Shown: piece after piece, positions 1 to 29,653 of the stretch
Numbering within the stretch: the stretch's first letter is position 1
Layout of the letters: every line of letters begins with the position of its first letter
DNA from: Candidatus Dojkabacteria bacterium UBA3081
GTDB lineage: Bacteria > Patescibacteriota > Dojkabacteria > SC72
Assembly: GCA_002366615.1 (NCBI GenBank)
Contig: DFBL01000023.1
Location: 1 to 29,653, forward strand
DNA: 29,653 nucleotides
Reading direction: 5' to 3'
Translations under genes and position numbers: made by a program
The notes under the pieces: model-generated
What the model was told of the DNA's origin: nothing
The model's database searches: none
What the model saw: only the letters and a program-made list of their open reading frames with translations

Positions 1-3000
1 TACTGGGATGGTGCTATTGATGAAGTTCGCGTATACAATACTGCGATAGGCGAAGATGAGATAGAGAGACTATATCAAGTGGGTTTAGTACAACATACAC
101 ATGGGGTTCATAGTTCTAATGAAGATGTCTTACCTGCAAGAGCTGATGTACAGTCGATATCATGGACAAGGGTAGGAGATGATACTGGTGATGGAGAAAC
201 ACCATATAGTACAAACTCCCTTTATGCCCAATGGGATTTCAATGAGACTAGTGGTACTACAGCTGATAATGAGGGGAGTCTTGGAGCTACATGTGATGGG
301 ACGCTAATAAATATGACAACAACAGGCCAAGATGTCGGCTTAGGAACGGGGTGGACTAATGATAAACGGCGTTGGGGTAGTGGAGCCTTGATGTTTGATG
401 GTGGGAATGACTATGTTAGAGTTCCTTCTGATTCAAATTTAAGAAGGATGGGTTCTTTCTCCATAGAAGCATGGGTAAATACTGATTCTATCGGGAATGT
501 CCAACAGATTATTACCTCTTCGGATAATGGGGGAGGTGATGATGGGTGGGGGTTACGTATTCAAGGAAGTGGTAGAGTTTCCTTCAATGGCTCTAATGAT
601 GCTGGATGGTATAACACTGTAATAGAATCAGATACCATTTTGAAAGCTGGAGAGTGGTACCATCTAGTGGCAGTTTATGGTGATATTGATATTTATAGTG
701 AAAATGCTCAGCTTAAGATATATGTAAATGGGGTTCTAGAAAATACGAGAATTGTTAAAGGTGGTGTAAGTTACTCAATTACAGACTATATTAGTATAGG
801 TAGGAGAGGAGGGACTCATCTCCCCGACACACTTTACTTTGATGGAGTTATGGATAGTATACGTTTCTACGGAAGACCATTATCAGATACAGAGATACTT
901 AGCAACTATCAGTCTGGAAACATTGAGATGAGGTATAGGACTAAAACAGGTAGTACATGGGGTTTTTGGAGTGGTACAGAGAACTTGATAGAACCTTTTG
1001 ATGATGATTATTTATACGATACTAGTTTAACAGGTTTTCTCTCATACTGGCCAATGGAAGAGAGTAGTGGAACTGATATAGTGGATATTGGTTTTTCTAA
1101 TGATGGTACTGCAAGTGGGGCATATATTACTGATGGTAAATTTGGTAACGCTAGAACTTTTGATGGTGTGAATGATTATATATCAGTTCCAGATAGCTCC
1201 TCGCTTCGTTTATCTAGTGGTTTAACTTTAGAGATGTGGTATAAAACGACAGAGATACCAGTTGATTGGATAGTTCCTGTAAGAAAAGACACTGAAACTG
1301 GTACACGTTATCTTTATGGGTTTGCTTTTGATGGAAGCTCAGGAGGAAGAATATATGGTCAGTATTATAATGGGACTAATTTTATAGGAACGTATACAGA
1401 TTCTGAAGTATTTGATGGGAATTGGCATCATGCAGTAATGACTATAAGTGGAACGACTCTTAAGTTCTATTTCGATGGTGTATTAAAGGATACTGTGACG
1501 ATAACGGGCACACAGGGAGTTCCAACTGGGGAATTAGATATTGGAGCTCAGCCTCCTTGGACTGAGGGTAGTAGAGGGCATTTCTTCGAAGGTTCTATAG
1601 ATGAGGTTAGAATAAGTAATACCGTTGCAACGGCTTCAGAGATTCATGAGAGATGGACAGAAGGTTCTTCTAATGCTACTACATTGAGATCCAGGGCCTC
1701 TGAGCATTTTCTTGAAGGTGATGGAGGTTTTGAGATTGAATCCTCAGGAACTACTGTAGATGCTAATACCATAGGATATTGGAAGTTAGATGAGATCTCT
1801 TCTGCCTCCTTTTCGGACAGTAGTTCATATAACAATGATTCTACTAGTGTTGTAGGTACAACCTTTGTAGATGGAAAGGTTGAAGGGGCTAGAAGTTTTG
1901 ATGGCACAGATGACATAATAACAGTTGGAACCACAGGACGTCCGACAAATAGTTTTACTGTTGAAGCTTGGTTTACAACGGATCAACCTATCACTATTCT
2001 TACAGAAACAACTTCCGGTGTATATGGTAATACAGGTCAACACTATCTATTCGGAGCAGAACAGATGTCTGATAATGGTGGTATGGGAGTATCCGTGGGG
2101 ACTAATGGGATACAAGTAATTGAGCATGGTGCCAATTATCTACCTGCTTTAGCTGTCTATGAGGGCCCTGTACCAAGTGGTTGGAATCATGTTGCTGTTG
2201 TATATAATAATAAACAGCCATCTATATACTTAAATGGAGTGTTAGTACGCACAGGTTTGACCTCTCTTAAAACTTTGGTTTATGCTACTAAGGAAATTGG
2301 TGGAGGTTCTTTTGGTTTTCATTCAGGAAAAGTAGATGAGGTTCGTATTTCCAATAGAGTAAGGAGTGCTGCTGAAATAGGGCAGGTTTATGCAATGGGG
2401 AGAAATGAGTATGTTACTAGAGAGACATTGCTTAGTAACGATATCTCTTCTGATAGTGTGTTACCCTTCTGGTTTGCCAGTGATCAATTAGGTAACAATA
2501 TGGATTTAATATATGGAGAGAGTGCATATGCTAACTATGAAGCTGATATAAATACTGTAGGACTATGGCATTTAGATGAAAACTATAATGTTCCTAACTC
2601 ATATTACCTAAAAGATAGTAGTGGTTATGGGAATTATGGTGATGCAAATGGCTCTGCGTATGGTTCATCTTCTAGTGGTGCTCCTCAAGGGAAAAGAGGT
2701 TTAGCTAGAGAATTCGACGGCACGGGTGGAACTATAGTGGTTGCAAATGATTCATCATTGGCATTTGAAAGAACAAATAGTTTTAGCGTAGAGGCATGGA
2801 TAAAAACATCTTCTACTGCAACCTTCCAAGAAATACTTGGAAAGATGGATAATGCAGCACCATATAGGGGATATGATTTAAGTATATATAATAATGCGGT
2901 AGATTTTCAGCTTATCAATACGTGGGATACAAACTGTATTTCTTTACAAGGTACTACTCCTATAGAGGATGGAAATTGGCACCATATAGTGGGAACATAT

Positions 3001-22770: not shown

Positions 22771-22775
22771 TAGTG

Positions 22776-23783
22776 ATGTTAGGAAAGAAATTAGGTGTTG
22801 ATTTAGGCACCGCAAATTCAATTGTTTTTGTACAGGGAGAGGGTATCTCTTTTGTTGAACCTACTGTTGTTGCAATAGATGTAAATACATTTAAAGTTAT
22901 TGCTGTTGGTACCCAGGCTAAAAAGATGATAGGGAAGACTCCAGAGAACATTATTGCTAAAAGGCCCCTAAAGGATGGTGTTATTGCTGATTCGAGGGTT
23001 ACAGAGGCTTTACTTAAGTATTTTTTTAACAAAGCCCTTGGTAAGTCTAGGGTATTTAAGCCTGATGTGGTAATAAGTGTACCTGCAGGAATTACTACTG
23101 TAGAACAAAGAGCCGTTATAAAAGCAGCAAATAATGCAGGTGCAAGACAGATTACTATGTTACCTGAGCCATTGCTTGCTGCATTAGGTGCAGGCTTACC
23201 TATAGAGACATCTTCAGGGAATATGATAGTTAATCTAGGAGGAGGTACAGCAGAAGTAGCAGTACTATCTTTGGATGGTATTGTAGAGTACGAGTCATTA
23301 AGAGTAGCAGGAGATGCAATTAATGATGCAATTATCAACTTTATGAAAAAGAAGAAGGGGGTATTAATAGGGGAACAGACAGCTGAAAATATTAAGATTA
23401 GGATAGGTTCTGCAATAGATATTAGAAATCCTAAGAGTATGGAAGTAAGGGGTAGAGATTTTGGTGCAGGATTACCTAAAGCCATTACCATAAATTCAAA
23501 TGATGTAGCAACTGCGGTAAAAAGATCTCTACTTAGTATAATTGGGAGTATAAAGAGTGTATTAGAGAGGACTCCTCCTGAACTTTCTGCCGATATAATG
23601 GATAGGGGTATTACTATGAGTGGTGGTACATCTAAATTGAGGAATTTAGATAAGCTTTTTGCAAAGGCTATTGGTGTACCAGCATATGTTGCAGATGAAC
23701 CGATGTATTGTGTTGCGAATGGAACTGGTATAGCATTAGAATTAATGGCAACAGGTGAAAGAGTTTTTGTGTTTAATAAGTAA
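22776..23783 (+). CDS. mreB: Rod shape-determining protein MreB/Mbl-family actin homolog
   Basis: GVDLGTANS, EPTVVA, RPLKDGVIAD, SVPAGITTVEQRAV, EPLLAALGAG, AENIKIRIG, VLERTPPELSADI, SGGTSKL; ATG 22776 preferred to GTG 22773 for promoter spacing. Confidence 0.93.
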   Translation: MLGKKLGVDLGTANSIVFVQGEGISFVEPTVVAIDVNTFKVIAVGTQAKKMIGKTPENIIAKRPLKDGVIADSRVTEALLKYFFNKALGKSRVFKPDVVISVPAGITTVEQRAVIKAANNAGARQITMLPEPLLAALGAGLPIETSSGNMIVNLGGGTAEVAVLSLDGIVEYESLRVAGDAINDAIINFMKKKKGVLIGEQTAENIKIRIGSAIDIRNPKSMEVRGRDFGAGLPKAITINSNDVATAVKRSLLSIIGSIKSVLERTPPELSADIMDRGITMSGGTSKLRNLDKLFAKAIGVPAYVADEPMYCVANGTGIALELMATGERVFVFNK

Positions 23784-23801: not shown

Positions 23802-24959
23802 ATGTTTTCAAAATCAGGAAAAGCACAGATGAGATTAGAGGATGTTACTAAGTATCTTTCTAAACTTAGAATACCTACAGGCTTAGTTTTTACACCAACG
23901 AATTTAGAGCAGGAGAAAGAGAAATTCTTTAATTCTGATATATATGAACCTCAGTTTGAGTATAGAAGAACTAAAAACAGTAATGCTCAGATATTAAAAG
24001 AGCTTTCCTCTTTAAAAACTATCTCTGATGTTGATCCTCGTATTTCAAATTTTTACGTTGAATTAATAGCTTCTAAAGAGGAGTCTCATAGGCTAATGAA
24101 TGCAGTAGGTAATAATGAGCTTGTTAGTGAGATTTCATATCATAGGTATGGAAAAACATCTCCTTTACTTTTTAGAAATGCTTCTAGAGTTTTAAGAAAC
24201 AGGGTTAGTGGATACAATATTGTTAAATATCCCTCTAGACAAGCGAACCAGATGCTTGGATATGAAGAGATAGAGAGGGTTTTCAATACAGTTTTTGATG
24301 GTTTTGGTATACAAGGGTGGAAGGTTAAACCTTCTAAAGGTATAGCCAAAAATGGAGCTAAGGTAGGTGTTAAGAGTAGATGGGTATTACTGGATCCTAA
24401 CATTAAACGTTCAAAATTTAGATTAAAGAAAACTTTAGTCCATGAAGTAGGTACTCATGTGCTTAGAGCTGTTAATGGAGAGCAGACAGGTTTTGAGGCT
24501 CTATCAAGAGCTAACTTACCAAGCTATCTTGATATTGAGGAAGGATTGGCAACTTGGAACGAAGAGAATATGAATTTACTAACAAAGAAGTGGTTAAAGA
24601 GTAAAGCTGCAATGGTATGGGCTATATATATTGGTGAGAGAATGACTTTCAGGCAACTGTATAATAGTTTGTTGGGTGTTATTCCAAAAAAGTCAGCTTT
24701 TAATACAGCTTACAGAGTAAAAAGAGGACTAGAGGATACTAGTTATCCAGGTATATACACTAGAGATGTTGTGTATTTCAGAGGGTATAGGAGAGTAAAA
24801 AAGAAACTTGAGAAAGATAAATCAATGTATGAGAAGCTTTATGCAGGGAAAATAGATTTTAAGCAGTGTAGATGGGTAGATGAAGGATTATTACCTAAAG
24901 CAAAGATAGTACCAACTCAAGAGAAATGGAATGAGATATTTAAAAAGGCCGGTATTTAA
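23802..24959 (+). CDS. DUF1704 (MATCAP/QEGLA-like) zinc metallopeptidase
   Basis: VHEVGTHVLR (HExxxH), IEEGLA, RVKRG, YTRDVVYFRGY, LYAGKI. Confidence 0.85.
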   Translation: MFSKSGKAQMRLEDVTKYLSKLRIPTGLVFTPTNLEQEKEKFFNSDIYEPQFEYRRTKNSNAQILKELSSLKTISDVDPRISNFYVELIASKEESHRLMNAVGNNELVSEISYHRYGKTSPLLFRNASRVLRNRVSGYNIVKYPSRQANQMLGYEEIERVFNTVFDGFGIQGWKVKPSKGIAKNGAKVGVKSRWVLLDPNIKRSKFRLKKTLVHEVGTHVLRAVNGEQTGFEALSRANLPSYLDIEEGLATWNEENMNLLTKKWLKSKAAMVWAIYIGERMTFRQLYNSLLGVIPKKSAFNTAYRVKRGLEDTSYPGIYTRDVVYFRGYRRVKKKLEKDKSMYEKLYAGKIDFKQCRWVDEGLLPKAKIVPTQEKWNEIFKKAGI

Positions 24960-25900
24960 TTAGGAAAGGATTCAACTATTAACTTTGCTATGTTTACTGT
25001 CCCTTCTTTTATTTTCGTTTCATAAGCCTTAAATCCTGGGTTCATACTTATTTCCTGTAGTAATGGTTTGTTTTCTATTTCCATAATATCTACCGCAAGA
25101 AAATCGGCTTTGAGTTTTTGTGCAACATTTAACGCAAGTTCCTGGATTTTTGTTCCTGGTTTGTTGTAAGCAGAGTATTTTCCTTTCTTCACTGTCATGA
25201 AACCTTCCTTAGCTTCTCTCTTCCAACCACCTACAATATTACCCATACTAACAAATATTCTGTAGTCTATTTTACTACTTGAAAATTCCTGTATGAACAT
25301 CCTAGAGTAATTTAACTCTTTAAGATGTTCTTGTCTGTACCCATCTGCATTGTTAATTTTGAATACATTCTTTTTAATTTTCTTTTCCCCATTAATCAAT
25401 TCTATTCGATTTGCACCTGAGTACTCTTTCATAATTAAAGGGTAGGCATTGAGTACATCTCTGTGTGCAAGGTAGTTACCATCTGTTCTAAAGTAAGTGT
25501 TAAAGTAGGGGATACTGTTTTGAGAGCAGAAGAGTGCAAGTGCAATTTTGTTGTAGTAGGGGAGTTTTTTAATGGTTTTTTCATTTTGAACAAGGATCTT
25601 CTTTTCAGGATTGAGCACATTATATTGGTCAATGTAATCCACAATGTATTTTTTGAATTGATACTGTAACTCACTGTGTAAATCATGACCTCTGAATATG
25701 ATGTGAGTGTATTTTGTTATATCTTGACCTTTTGCTTTTATCAATGTTTCACCATTGATGAATTCAAATTCTAGTTCGTTTAGGTAGGTAAGAGAGTGGG
25801 GTATATTTTTTTTGTCCAATTCTTCAATTATCCTCTTTGAGGCATATGCAATTTTCTCACCAATTATTGGTTGTAGTTTGTCGATTATTAGGTAGTTCAT
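24956..25900 (-). CDS. Divergent RimK-like ATP-grasp protein
   Basis: NKIALA...IPYFNT, YPLIMK, FIQEF, DYRIFV, FLAVDIM, LQEISMNPGF. Confidence 0.7.
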   Translation of the reverse strand: MNYLIIDKLQPIIGEKIAYASKRIIEELDKKNIPHSLTYLNELEFEFINGETLIKAKGQDITKYTHIIFRGHDLHSELQYQFKKYIVDYIDQYNVLNPEKKILVQNEKTIKKLPYYNKIALALFCSQNSIPYFNTYFRTDGNYLAHRDVLNAYPLIMKEYSGANRIELINGEKKIKKNVFKINNADGYRQEHLKELNYSRMFIQEFSSSKIDYRIFVSMGNIVGGWKREAKEGFMTVKKGKYSAYNKPGTKIQELALNVAQKLKADFLAVDIMEIENKPLLQEISMNPGFKAYETKIKEGTVNIAKLIVESFPN

Positions 25901-25905
25901 ATTTT

Positions 25906-27600
25906 TTATATTGTCTTTATTTTATCTATTAATCCTTTTCTCTTGTATCTTTTTACTACTTTCATTTGCTCTTTTTCTTTAGAGAGTTCCTTTGTTATAT
26001 AAAGGGTATCAATGTAATCAAAACCTAGGCCATACTCTTTCACTTCATTCCAATCTCTAAAATGTAGCAAAATTACATCTAAGGAGGCATTGCATTTGAT
26101 AGCTTCTACATGTTGCCATCTATGAGCTTGGGAGTCCATCTCCATTCCATTAATGTAGTATTTTTCCCCCACTATCTCTCCCACATTCTGTTGCTGTTTA
26201 ATATCTTTCTTTTTTCTTAAAAGGGTAGGAAGATCATCTTTAGTTTGACCAACTAGTACAAATCTTTTACATTTGTTTTGTGCAAGTAGTTCATCTATGT
26301 AGGTATCTGCTACAGAGGCTCTCTGTGTGCCCAAAACAGGGTAGAGGTTTAGATAGGTCTCAGGCATTGTGTTTATCTCAAGAATAGCTCCATTATCCTT
26401 TGTTAAGGGTTTGGAGATGTCTTTACACATAACATCTACACCGAGGGTAAAGGCATGTACAGAGTGTGCAATGCTTTCAACAATGATTTGAATTTCTTTG
26501 CTTACTTCTTCAGTAAAGTCTTGGGTAATACCCCCTTGACTCATACTAGCAACCTTACGTACTTGTATCTTTTCATCTTTTTGGGGAACATAGTCTAGTG
26601 AGAGATTTTGTTCTTTAAGGTAGTTTAAGAGAGGCTTATCAATGTTTATAGGTTTTAATATATGTGCAGGATTTGAGAGGTCTCTTCTTGGGTCTTTGTT
26701 TTCTTCATTAATTAATTGGTCAATATTCTTTTTACCATTACCGACAATAAAAGCCGGAATTCTCTTAGTTGTTACCTGTAGTTTCCCATTTATAACTAAA
26801 AGCCTGTAATCTTCACCTTGCACCTGCTCTTGTATCATGATTTTTTTCTGCCAAGAGTTTCTATTTTTATCATTTACTTTTTCTTTTGCATAGTCGAAAG
26901 CTTTTTTGGCTTTTTCTATAGTATCAATTCCAACACTTACTCCTTTTCCTGCAGTTAAGCCTGTTGGTTTAATAACGACGGGTTTTTCGAACTCATCCCA
27001 CATCCCTTCGATAGATTTTTTTGTTGGTAACACCCCCCATTTTGGTAAAGGTAATTGCATTCTTTCGATGAAGATATTGGTTGCCCATTTGTCTCTTTGA
27101 AACTTCTGAGCCATATGTGTATCTTTAGTTGATGAAGCAGAGCCTGTAATATGTGAACCTCTTCCACAACCTAAAGTAAGATATCTGTTGAATGAATTGT
27201 CAAAGCCTTGATCACGATCTTCTAATCTGGGATACTCCAAAATGCTTGTTGTTATTTCAATATTTTTATTCATACAGGAATGCAAAAGAGATATAGTAGA
27301 CATTGATTTAATCCTCTTATTGATTAGAGTATTAATTATGAAAGAGGAAGCGTCTTTAAAGTTAGTAGAACTTTTTGATAGATTATTTAGAGTTTCTCCA
27401 GATTCTCTCCAAAGAAATGGTAATTTAGACCTTATAGTAAGTAGAGTGGGGGATATTTCATAGGAGTGAATAAAGATAGGGTGAAATGATGCTACTTTAT
27501 CTAGAATCTTTGACACATCTCCAATATTTGGACCTTCCAGATCTATTTTTACTGTTGTGAATTCTGATTCTAGATTTAATCCTTGTACTGTTTTTATCAT
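25906..27600 (-). CDS. Cyanophycin-synthetase-like protein: reduced N domain, ATP-grasp G domain, truncated degenerate Mur-like M domain
   Basis: KPVVIKP...GKGVS, IQEQVQGEDYRLLVINGK, RIPAFIVGNG, ASMSQGG, GVDVMCKDISKPL, ILEINTMP; tail VGEIVGEKYYING...LDVILLH...GLGFDYID resembles the start of the CphA M domain without its P-loop. Confidence 0.75.
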   Translation of the reverse strand: MIKTVQGLNLESEFTTVKIDLEGPNIGDVSKILDKVASFHPIFIHSYEISPTLLTIRSKLPFLWRESGETLNNLSKSSTNFKDASSFIINTLINKRIKSMSTISLLHSCMNKNIEITTSILEYPRLEDRDQGFDNSFNRYLTLGCGRGSHITGSASSTKDTHMAQKFQRDKWATNIFIERMQLPLPKWGVLPTKKSIEGMWDEFEKPVVIKPTGLTAGKGVSVGIDTIEKAKKAFDYAKEKVNDKNRNSWQKKIMIQEQVQGEDYRLLVINGKLQVTTKRIPAFIVGNGKKNIDQLINEENKDPRRDLSNPAHILKPINIDKPLLNYLKEQNLSLDYVPQKDEKIQVRKVASMSQGGITQDFTEEVSKEIQIIVESIAHSVHAFTLGVDVMCKDISKPLTKDNGAILEINTMPETYLNLYPVLGTQRASVADTYIDELLAQNKCKRFVLVGQTKDDLPTLLRKKKDIKQQQNVGEIVGEKYYINGMEMDSQAHRWQHVEAIKCNASLDVILLHFRDWNEVKEYGLGFDYIDTLYITKELSKEKEQMKVVKRYKRKGLIDKIKTI

Positions 27601-27608
27601 TATATTTA

Positions 27609-28589
27609 TTATACTATTTTAGATATGTAATCCATAATTGGTATTGCTACCTTAACAACTTCTCCCTGCTGTACTTTATAGTGTAAGCGCAATCCAGGAT
27701 TATAGTTTATTTCATTTATTACACATTTGGTAGGCTTTGTTATATCAGGTGTAATTATATCTACACCTCCAAATTTAGCACCTATTACACGAACAGATTC
27801 AATAGCTAAATCCTTATAGTATTGATGGGTTTCTTTAGAACACTCCTGTGTAGTCCCTCCTGTAGAGAGATTACAGTTATATCTTAGCCTTATCTCCTCT
27901 CTATCTTTAGGTATATATTTCATACTTATTCCTAGGTTATCTAGTCTCTGTTTTACTTCATTATCTATAGTTATTGGCTTGAGTAAATCTTTTTTTCTTC
28001 CTTTGTTCTTTTTTTCTATTAATTTTTTAATACTATCTTTACCATTTCCTGTAACAAAAGCAGACTTTCTTCTAACTATACCAATAACTTGGTTATCCAA
28101 TACTAAGAGTCGATAGTTATCACCTTGTATGAATTGTTCACCAATTACTTTGGTAGAACCTGTTCCCTTTGAGTGTTTTTTAGCATATGAATACGCTCTT
28201 AAAACATCTTTTCTATCTTTAGGAAGTAGTGTAACCCCTATACCACCAAGCTGTTGAGAGGGTTTTATGACGATATCCTTATAGTTATTAAAAAACCTAA
28301 CAGCATCCTCTTTGCTCTTAAGAGGCAATTGTTTAGGAACTGGCATATCAAATTTAGAAAGGACCCTGTTTGTTAGATTCTTCCTTTTAGCAATTGTAGT
28401 ACTTGGAGTATTTGTTAATGGTGTAGCAGTATTTATTATATACCAATGTTTTTTCTCCTTTCTAAATATTGCTAATAGTCCCTTTACTAAAACTTCATAC
28501 TCAATATTTAAACTGTCAGCAGCTTCTAAATAGTAGGCTAGATGTACATTTCCTGCTTCCTGAAGATATTGTTTATATGTTTTACTCAT
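27609..28589 (-). CDS. Stand-alone cyanophycin-synthetase/GshAB-type ATP-grasp ligase (G domain only), 326 aa
   Basis: IVIKP...GGIGVT, EQFIQGDNYRLLVL, RRKSAFVTGNG, NCNLSTGG, GGVDII, INEINYNPGLRLH. Start reassigned to MSKTYK (28589), 7 nt after TAAAAT; the track start (28628) lies inside the upstream gene. Confidence 0.8.
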   Translation of the reverse strand: MSKTYKQYLQEAGNVHLAYYLEAADSLNIEYEVLVKGLLAIFRKEKKHWYIINTATPLTNTPSTTIAKRKNLTNRVLSKFDMPVPKQLPLKSKEDAVRFFNNYKDIVIKPSQQLGGIGVTLLPKDRKDVLRAYSYAKKHSKGTGSTKVIGEQFIQGDNYRLLVLDNQVIGIVRRKSAFVTGNGKDSIKKLIEKKNKGRKKDLLKPITIDNEVKQRLDNLGISMKYIPKDREEIRLRYNCNLSTGGTTQECSKETHQYYKDLAIESVRVIGAKFGGVDIITPDITKPTKCVINEINYNPGLRLHYKVQQGEVVKVAIPIMDYISKIV

Positions 28590-28605
28590 GAATATGATTT
28601 TAAAG

Positions 28606-29653
28606 TTAAAAGGTATTACTTGTATCAATTAAATATCCAGACAGGTCTACTCTTCCCAGTGTTATGGGATATATACTATCTGCAGAGTTAGATGATACAA
28701 ATTCAGAAACTTTGTACTCCTTTGCCATCTTAAAAGGAACATCAAAAACAGGCCTTATCCTTATTTCTCCATCTTCAATAATTTTTGCTAATCTCTTTAT
28801 ATCAGTATCTTTACATACTTTTTGTTCATGTTTATCTATATACTCTTGAGCTTGCTTAAAACTATTGAAATTCTCAGGGATATTTGTCTTATTAAAATCT
28901 TTATGTGCTTGCATATATCCTATCCTATTTGCTAGTTTGGGATCTATTCTAGATGTTAATATTCCTGTATCCATAAAGGCTCTTACTAACTCTTTTGTAT
29001 TCTTTCTTCTACTACTAGATTTAGATATCTCTGTTTTTTTGTCATAAATATATATTTTTTCAGTAATATTAAGAACTTTCCTTCCACTTATTGCCTCAAT
29101 GCTTTCTTCAATTTCTCCCCCAAAAAGATTTTTAGAAACTCTAATACCGTGTTTAATACTTTTAATTTTTACATCCTTTATCTTTTCTAATCTCCATCTT
29201 AGACCAGCTTGATTGGCAACCTGTATTCCAAGACCAGGTCTTGCATTCATTTCGAATACAACGGGGCCTTTCTCTGCATCTAAAGCTATATCTACCCCTA
29301 TATATCCTAAGCCACTAACTTCTTGACATTTCAATGCTATCTCCAAGAGTTCATTCCAAAAAGGTATTTGTATACCACTTAGAGGTTTGTTTTCTTTAAG
29401 ATCTATTGTAGAATCAGTCATTTCATAGGTGTCACTTAGAAATGGACTCTTTTTCATATGCATGGAGTATGTAGTTATTCCTGTCCCTATATCTATACCA
29501 GTACATATTGCACCCGAATGGAGGTTAGCTGTTCCATCAGATTTTTTTGTTGGTAATCTGAGCATTGCCATTACAGGTACTTGGTTAAAGCATATTATTC
29601 TAATATCAGGTACACCTCTATAGGAGTACTGCTTAAGTAGAGTGTCTGTTTTA
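28606..29653 (-). CDS. Alpha-L-glutamate-ligase-like (ATPgrasp_ST) ATP-grasp enzyme fused to a C-terminal RimB/retropepsin-like protease domain; 5' end beyond the window
   Basis: Frame stays open from 29571 to the window edge (KTDTLLKQYSYRGVPDIRIICFNQVPVMAMLRLPT). Ligase motifs GVPDIRI, AMLRLPT, ANLHSGA, GVDI, FEMNARPGL; protease motifs AFMDTG..TSRID, RPV, YPITLGR..LSGYLID. Confidence 0.8.
   Translation of the reverse strand, partial: KTDTLLKQYSYRGVPDIRIICFNQVPVMAMLRLPTKKSDGTANLHSGAICTGIDIGTGITTYSMHMKKSPFLSDTYEMTDSTIDLKENKPLSGIQIPFWNELLEIALKCQEVSGLGYIGVDIALDAEKGPVVFEMNARPGLGIQVANQAGLRWRLEKIKDVKIKSIKHGIRVSKNLFGGEIEESIEAISGRKVLNITEKIYIYDKKTEISKSSSRRKNTKELVRAFMDTGILTSRIDPKLANRIGYMQAHKDFNKTNIPENFNSFKQAQEYIDKHEQKVCKDTDIKRLAKIIEDGEIRIRPVFDVPFKMAKEYKVSEFVSSNSADSIYPITLGRVDLSGYLIDTSNTF

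Follow-up and report, generated by a model that had tools for sequence, protein, structure and literature searches.

A contig of Candidatus Dojkabacteria bacterium UBA3081 (DFBL01000023.1; the window analysed here is this entire contig of 29,653 nucleotides (nt), C61 of the 61 contigs in a source genome of 613 kb and 89% completeness) ends in a five-gene cluster at positions 23802–29653, composed of four ligase-type genes on the minus strand and one convergent peptidase gene on the plus strand, as derived from the listing of open reading frames (ORFs) and from family searches. The closest characterised relative of this locus is the rloABC operon of Pseudomonas aeruginosa, of which it is an enlarged and fused Rlo/Rim-type variant. 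We favor the interpretation, at a probability of about one half, that the cluster and a seven-transmembrane (7TM) protein encoded immediately upstream constitute one operon-encoded, membrane-associated system that would build and trim a short peptide chain on a terminal carboxylate. Domain identities, catalytic motifs, synteny, fusions and operon layout are direct observations and are described first; relatives are Dojkabacteria genomes, and genomes and loci are given with our internal labels (G and L numbers, respectively) where needed.

Layout of the Ligase–Peptidase Cluster

The cluster consists of the following elements:

29158–29653, minus strand: ATPgrasp_ST/TIGR02291 (RloC-like) ligase domain, C-terminal half (PF14397, E = 4e-43; TIGR02291, E = 7e-52).
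28606–29157, minus strand: retropepsin-like aspartic peptidase domain (RloA/RimB, PF05618-type), fused in frame to the ligase; DTG codons at 28963–28971.
27609–28589, minus strand: G1, a stand-alone ATP-grasp ligase of the CphA G-domain type, 326 amino acids (aa) (TIGR02068, 205 bits).
25906–27600, minus strand: G2, a CphA2-like protein of 564 aa with N domain (residues ~1–135), G domain (~136–447) and truncated M stump (~448–564).
24956–25900, minus strand: ATP-grasp protein with distant similarity to RimK, encoded by the final operon gene (PF08443, E = 1.5e-11).
23802–24959, plus strand: MATCAP/DUF1704 (QEGLA-type) metallocarboxypeptidase (PF08014, 105 bits versus a cut-off of 27).

The minus-strand genes are separated by gaps of 16, 8 and 5 nt, with ATG 28589 as the start of G1, and the stop codons of the RimK-like and MATCAP genes overlap convergently by 4 nt (24956–24959), leaving no space for terminators between the two transcription units. 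The same 4-nt convergent overlap recurs in L041, L045, L046, L051 and L054. The first ORF (28606–29652, minus strand), in which the ligase half runs into the ~180-aa peptidase domain, is open at the contig end; its ~125 first codons are located on contig C24 (positions 1–375, minus strand) and, judged from relatives, ~18 codons are missing between the two contigs. On C24, the gene for the 7TM protein overlaps the ligase start by 11 nt and is itself preceded by rplL, then rplJ, rplA, rplK and nusG. The gaps of 5–16 nt and the overlapping starts indicate co-translation of the cluster genes. The 121-nt spacer between rplL and the 7TM gene harbors, within 1064–1126 of L006 on C24 (minus strand), a terminator-like hairpin (11 bp, 5 GC) immediately 3' of rplL and, downstream of the hairpin and 36 nt ahead of the 7TM start, a sigma-70-like promoter match (11/12 positions); no terminator-like site was detected on the coding strand within the cluster. 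With the hairpin and the promoter match between them, the ribosomal-protein genes and the ligase operon seem to be transcriptionally separate.

An earlier, sequence-only reading of the window had described these five genes with their gaps, the 4-nt overlap and the DTG and HExxxH/EEGLA motifs, all of which the ORF listing and domain matches confirmed. It had further predicted a 7TM partner upstream, which was indeed found on C24 as a 220-aa protein without extracellular domain that matches PF14402 (7TM_transglut) at positions 52–245.

Conservation and Gene Fusions

That the parts belong to one system is argued by conserved synteny and by fusions elsewhere in Patescibacteria. The order rplL > 7TM > ATPgrasp_ST-retropepsin > G1 > G2 > RimK-like < MATCAP is kept in 17 loci of 14–20 kb each; these come from four of the order's families and from one sister family in the class, where the arrangement is retained at 25–60% identity. 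Orthologues of G2 were identified in each of 60 genomes of the same family. Almost every genome of four further families in the order has one too, and they also occur in one more family of the class. Exceptions to synteny were a displaced G2 in the sister family (L047) and genes inserted in G063, G011 and G029. Co-occurrence of the genes in other genomes, which had been proposed as a check on the initial prediction, was thus borne out, the array being syntenic in all relatives examined across family and order and in a second family of the class.

In a wider survey of an even sample of 401 Patescibacteria genomes, ATPgrasp_ST was present in 168 (148 of these above cut-off) and MATCAP in 76. Among the 55 MATCAP-bearing genomes outside the class, 35 encode MATCAP either fused to ATPgrasp_ST or within ~3 kb of it (coordinates compared by eye). 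Two types of fusion deserve mention: an ATPgrasp_ST-MATCAP fusion of 799 aa (L135:6500–8899, minus strand) and an ATPgrasp_ST-retropepsin-ATP-grasp_3 fusion of 921 aa (L141:7408–10173, minus strand), both from other Patescibacteria. In another class, a single locus (L138:3013–11418) assembles a 7TM protein, a ligase-retropepsin, MATCAP, an FGase-like amidohydrolase and two more ATP-grasp genes; the 7TM partner in these other Patescibacteria carries an N-terminal PKD domain. It is these fusions that argue most strongly for ligases and peptidases acting on one substrate. In some Patescibacteria, a second, divergent MATCAP-like paralogue (~450–510 aa) lies beside the ligase-MATCAP fusion (L137:8344–9804, minus strand).

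Gene neighborhoods of this kind were reportedly first predicted by Iyer et al. in 2009. In our literature search, we found no paper describing the present locus and nothing relevant on bacterial MATCAP with ATP-grasp enzymes or on CphA-like enzymes in Patescibacteria.

The Ligase–Retropepsin Fusion and Its 7TM Partner

TIGR02291 is matched by a full-length relative of the first ligase at 283.5 bits (cut-off 314.2; model positions 9–291 of 317) and by the half gene of the window at 176 bits; homology is clear, although the full-length score falls narrowly short of the curated threshold. The E-x-N motif (FEMNARPG) is invariant in the alignment of relatives, and an AlphaFold2 (AF2) model of a relative's first ligase had ArgX/LysX and RimK-RpsF as its nearest folds in Foldseek searches; these enzymes ligate amino acids to a protein's C-terminal residue, ArgX/LysX acting on LysW and RimK on RpsF.

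In the retropepsin domain, D228 and T229 are invariant and followed by Gly in 13 of 15 sequences, and G333, R334 and D343 are conserved within an I-x-G-R-x-D-L motif; both motifs that mark membership in the retropepsins, D-T/S-G and the G-R-D/N strand, are present. A profile of this domain alone matched the RloA-type 'Zn_protease' structures 9g59 (E = 5e-8) and 9g58 (E = 2e-7), followed by 2pma and Ddi1, and PF05618 matched the homologous stretch of L141, from another lineage, at E = 8e-12. When the model of the whole fusion was submitted to Foldseek, the ATP-grasp part dominated and retropepsins were not listed; the sequence profile settled the identity of the domain instead. Ligase and retropepsin form a single ORF of 482–516 aa in all 17 relatives examined. 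Fused behind the ligase in one ORF, the retropepsin domain lacks a signal peptide of its own, and its trimming activity would be cytoplasmic because the ligase to which it is fused is cytoplasmic and devoid of a signal peptide. Open frames of 893–905 aa in G024, G059 and G065 were considered as ligase-retropepsin-G1 fusions and rejected, as the ORF listing revealed separate genes.

NF052267 matched the 7TM partner only at model positions 311–507, with 42.6 bits versus a cut-off of 900. For relative G021, a predicted complex of its ligase-retropepsin fusion with the 7TM protein scored 0.30, below the mark of 0.34, and counts neither as support nor as counter-evidence.

G1 and G2, Two CphA-like Ligases

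For G1, the TIGR02068 match covers model positions 165–470, with GshAB and NAGGN synthetase as next-best families, and CphA1 (7lgn) was matched in the Protein Data Bank (PDB) at E = 4e-33. The protein retains the N-L-S-T-G-G loop and the E-I-N motif and, when read by eye against CphA alignments, has no acidic residue at the position of D212, the residue that contacts Arg in the cyanophycin synthetase StCphA2. In relatives, a G1 paralogue is always found immediately upstream of G2; a lone G1-like gene in G091 lies between tgt and groEL, a context that is uninformative.

G2 had been read from the sequence as a CphA-like N-G-M' protein, an assignment now corroborated by structure prediction. The AF2 model, built with 12 orthologues (mean predicted local distance difference test score (pLDDT) of 89), found CphA2 (7ta5) as the best Foldseek match (E = 1e-39; TM-scores of 0.70 and 0.68 for query and target, TMq and TMt), with CphA1 and then a second CphA2 structure as runners-up. 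Because the superposition on 7ta5 extends over the full length (~600 columns), the N-G-truncated-M architecture of G2 can be considered real. On the sequence level, TIGR02068 reached 229 bits versus a cut-off of 850, and the profile aligned to CphA1 residues 182–584, thus ending ~100 residues into the M domain. The M stump has no P-loop, the GTNGKT position reading G-Q-T-K-D-D. To compare functional residues, those for substrate binding and activity of StCphA2 (PMC10273328) were mapped onto G2 and its orthologues. R308, D362, R389 and S395 correspond to R266, D321, R348 and S354 of G2, all kept and invariant. In contrast, D212 corresponds to K166, which varies among K, E, N, M and G in orthologues, and N393, essential in CphA2 (PMC10273328), is replaced by an invariant Ser (S352).

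A cyanophycin-like Asp/Arg polymer is therefore an unlikely product, as the M stump lacks the P-loop, D212 is not conserved, N393 is exchanged for Ser and a cyanophycinase of the Peptidase_S51 family (PF03575) was not found in the 89%-complete genome. The only ligase of the Mur/CapB family found in this genome was MurF. Among 1.8 billion representatives, those that match G2 over its full length fall into only ~10 clusters (50% identity), and public records annotate them as 'cyanophycin synthetase' or 'hypothetical'.

The RimK-like Protein, the MATCAP Peptidase and the Adjacent mreB

The last operon gene is only distantly related to RimK (TIGR00768, 46 bits versus a cut-off of 143.4; PDB match to RimK at only E = 2e-4). 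Its Mg motif reads E-I-S (25046–25054, minus strand) instead of the ATP-grasp E-x-N, and does so in all family members, while orthologues in sister families keep E-[VIT]-N. With Ser at the position of the Mg-binding Asn, the protein may be a pseudo-enzyme, and it is uncertain whether all four ligases are active; of the initial notion of four tandem ATP-grasp ligases, the four genes stand and the activity of the RimK-like one is in doubt.

The MATCAP protein displays the motifs HEVGTH (24441–24458) and EEGLA (24537–24551), conserved in 16 sequences, and aligns with human MATCAP (7z5g, E = 6e-17) over both of them. The proteobacterial equivalog TIGR02421 was not reached (125 versus 339 bits).

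The MATCAP gene is preceded by a further gene, listed here for context only:

22773–23783, plus strand: mreB (PF06723, E = 7e-127), oriented like the downstream MATCAP gene and separated from it by 18 nt.

The adjacency of mreB and MATCAP is kept within the order and absent in sister family f13 and in the other Patescibacteria loci examined. The MreB C-terminus of the present genome (..RVFVFNK) has neither an acidic nor an aromatic tail.

Discussion

As to how the system works chemically, on which acceptor and with which amino acids, we infer the following scheme. Each ATP-grasp enzyme would phosphorylate the C-terminal carboxylate of the acceptor and then add an amino acid, or perhaps a dipeptide in the case of G2, such that the ligases jointly yield a mixed and probably acidic extension. 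A protein tail might serve as acceptor, or a peptide that the 7TM protein would hold at the membrane. Acidic runs would be cut by the retropepsin and C-terminal residues stripped by the MATCAP enzyme, so that writers and erasers together may set chain length and end group. In line with this scheme, catalytic motifs are conserved (DTG and GRD in the retropepsin, HExxxH and EEGLA in the MATCAP protein, and E-x-N in three of the four ligases). These genomes of 0.6–0.9 Mb have shed most biosynthesis, yet all those examined retain the two peptidases and the four ligases that consume ATP, and the cluster being kept in such reduced genomes suggests that its product is probably important to these organisms.

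Several points weigh against this putative reading. The RimK-like protein may be inactive or of altered chemistry. The MATCAP gene lies on the strand opposite to the ligase genes, and co-regulation of both strands is putative; synteny within one order partly reflects common descent. Nor did a clear acceptor emerge when the 585 ORFs of the genome were scanned for acidic C-termini: seven qualified, namely the 7TM protein, S12, NusB, a KhpB/Jag-like protein, a DUF5667 protein and two others. The 7TM tail of this family does not end in Glu; behind an acidic patch come between one and three residues of other kinds (..KEDDK, ..DDSSN, ..DDNK). Tails ending in Glu were seen in sister family f13 (..EEEEEEEREEE, ..EELEEE), and some other lineages have them too (..IEE, ..AEE). 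It is tempting to speculate that the carboxypeptidase exposes the acidic patch. Ribosomal protein S6, considered as the classical RimK target, was rejected as it ends in ..RIKKKEIEI without a Glu-Glu.

S12 of this genome (C26:12640–13056, L147) continues at its C-terminus for a short stretch past ..SKYG[AV]K, with ..KKSDEE as its end. Such an extension is Glu-ending in 18 of 29 Dojkabacteria relatives (L150–L178) and is a possible acceptor of the RimK type.

Alternatively, the ligases might make a free amino-acid polymer or oligopeptide, with the CphA2-like G2 polymerising scavenged dipeptides and G1 and the others priming or decorating the chain. We consider this unlikely, yet worth weighing in detail, and attach the same low expectation to its corollary that the product is stored in the cell or exported via the 7TM protein, with both peptidases acting as depolymerases. 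The full N-G-truncated-M architecture shared with CphA2, a dipeptide polymerase, speaks for it, as do the small genomes of these organisms and the finding that RimK makes free poly-alpha-glutamate as well (PMC12239564). An exported product is also suggested by the Pseudomonas system, where the protease RloA is secreted while the ligase is cytoplasmic (PMC12239564). However, the Arg-binding D212 of cyanophycin synthesis is variable in G2, the essential N393 has become an invariant Ser and no cyanophycinase was found in the genome. Moreover, the fusion of the retropepsin to a cytoplasmic ligase points to trimming in the cytoplasm, and the structures closest to the first ligase are those of enzymes that modify protein C-termini.

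Another possibility is raised by the inventory of cell-wall genes. Our source genome lacks a match to Ddl and contains MurF as its single Mur ligase (contig C32, L149:674–2092). No Mur_ligase_M match at all was obtained in 22 of 101 relatives, including the closed genomes G001 and G021 and whole genera of the family, while other families have three to eight such matches. An independent search with Mur_ligase_C agreed in that none was found in G001, G021, G005 and G022; Ddl was not found in four of six genomes checked. Family members without Mur ligases nevertheless keep MurA, MurB, MurG, MraY, penicillin-binding proteins (PBPs) and MreB: the Mur-less closed genome G001 has a contiguous dcw remnant in the order MurG-MurB-MurA-x-RsmH-class-B PBP-MraY (L179, G001:C1:612000–624000), and three PBP matches plus MurB were counted in each of G000, G001 and G021. 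Alanine and glutamate racemases are kept in Mur-less G005 and absent in two other Mur-less genomes. G2 and the ligase cluster occur in every Mur-less genome, and each of the 15 genomes lacking G2 retains a Mur ligase match. A lipid-II pathway without Mur ligases in closed genomes poses a missing-enzyme problem, for which the ligase cluster is one candidate; nothing relevant was found in the literature on Mur loss in Dojkabacteria.

From these data one could construct a model in which the cluster makes or attaches the cell-wall peptide, its ligases supplying the stem peptide or a substitute on UDP-N-acetylmuramic acid (UDP-MurNAc) where MurC-F and Ddl were lost. The model could be stretched further, to a non-orthologous replacement of the Mur ligases by the mreB-adjacent cluster in those relatives, about a third of the sampled ones in the family, in which MurC, MurD, MurE, MurF and Ddl are all undetectable, with the cluster having enabled repeated loss. 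We hold the first version to be quite improbable and regard the extended one with equal skepticism. Besides the co-occurrence of Mur loss with G2, the dcw remnant of G001 and the racemases of G005, the location next to mreB would fit, and so would the shape and osmotic defects of rlo mutants and the induction of the Vibrio orthologues by VxrAB (PMC12239564). On the other hand, G040, G002, G009 and the sister families possess both the cluster and four or five Mur ligases, so that complementarity is lacking, and the cluster's core is widespread in Patescibacteria. A 7TM partner and two peptidases would be unexpected in a precursor pathway, and scavenging of wall fragments offers an alternative. 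Furthermore, all Mur-less genomes belong to one family, so that the association between Mur loss and the cluster may be phylogenetic. In view of this and of the coexistence of the cluster with full Mur sets, we take Mur absence as a lead rather than as evidence.

Finally, we give very little credence to the notion that the genes have separate, unrelated roles (for instance, one encoding a glutathione-like dipeptide ligase, another a glutamylase of ribosomal proteins and a third a housekeeping carboxypeptidase) and are adjacent through shared ancestry in a slowly rearranging small genome: synteny evidence stemming mostly from one order, the displaced G2 in L047, the insertions in G063, G011 and G029, the lone G1-like gene of G091 and the S12 extension as a conceivable RimK-type target are in line with it, whereas distant Patescibacteria fuse ATPgrasp_ST to MATCAP or to a retropepsin and a further ATP-grasp domain, extra ligases and the FGase-like amidohydrolase accompany the core in another class (L138), gene spacing indicates co-translation, and the order survives in a sister family at 25–60% identity.

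Comparison with Known Systems

The proposed building and trimming of a peptide chain has counterparts in several known systems. MATCAP is paired with TTL/TTLL enzymes on tubulin tails. The Dojkabacteria peptidase belongs to the same Pfam family as this tubulin detyrosinase (KIAA0895L), shares its HExxxH and EEGLA motifs and is likewise paired with ATP-grasp ligases; it differs in being bacterial, where tubulin is absent, and in that its partner ligases are of the RimK/CphA type and not of the TTL type.

With CphA2, a cyanobacterial enzyme (PMC10206079, PMC10273328; structures 7ta5 and 8fxh), G2 has in common the N domain, the ATP-grasp G domain and a truncated, inactive M domain, as well as D362, R389 and S395 of the pocket for the incoming substrate. 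Its G domain is ~35% identical (by eye), its M stump is shorter, and the Arg contact D212 and N393 are not preserved. In addition, CphA1 and the cyanobacterial context are missing here, no cyanophycinase was found in the genome, and G2 resides in an Rlo-type operon. From CphA1, G2 is set apart by its lack of an active Mur-ligase-like M domain.

RimK and RimB represent the same principle of an ATP-grasp extender of a C-terminal carboxylate paired with a retropepsin-like trimmer of the added residues, and one of the solved structures closest in fold to the first Dojkabacteria ligase is that of RimK. Here, however, no cluster protein reaches the RimK cut-off, the Mg motif of the RimK-like gene reads E-I-S, S6 lacks the Glu-Glu end, and the system includes a membrane partner.

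The rloABC operon of P. aeruginosa has been characterised genetically (Lormand et al., mBio 2025, PMC12239564). RloA and RimB cleave polyglutamate, as demonstrated in vitro for RloA; a triple protease mutant (rloA1-3) is sensitive to low osmolarity and misshapen, defects suppressed by deletion of rloB or rloC; and the Vibrio orthologues are induced by VxrAB, a two-component system linked to cell-wall integrity (PMC12239564). In both genera, osmotic tolerance, the shape of the cells, biofilm and susceptibility to antibiotics are influenced by the operon. The Dojkabacteria locus likewise unites in one operon homologues of RloC (a ligase of the TIGR02291 type), of RloA (a PF05618 retropepsin) and of the 7TM portion of RloB, linked here by the 7TM/ligase overlap and the 5–16-nt gaps. 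Unlike RloA, which is separate and secreted, the peptidase is fused to the ligase C-terminus without a signal peptide; the 7TM protein is devoid of the inactive transglutaminase domain of RloB; and three ATP-grasp genes (G1, G2 and the RimK-like gene) as well as MATCAP are added. The homologues all remain below the NCBIfam cut-offs (283.5 versus 314, 28.5 versus 210 and 42.6 versus 900). The view that the locus had not been described before thus holds insofar as we found no paper describing it, but its core of 7TM protein, ligase and retropepsin is of the rloABC type (PMC12239564). Beyond this core, the locus brings together three enzyme types that have been studied separately, the Rlo/Rim ligase–protease pairs, the CphA-type polymerases and the MATCAP carboxypeptidase, and solving its product would probably reveal that of RloC in Pseudomonas and Vibrio as well.

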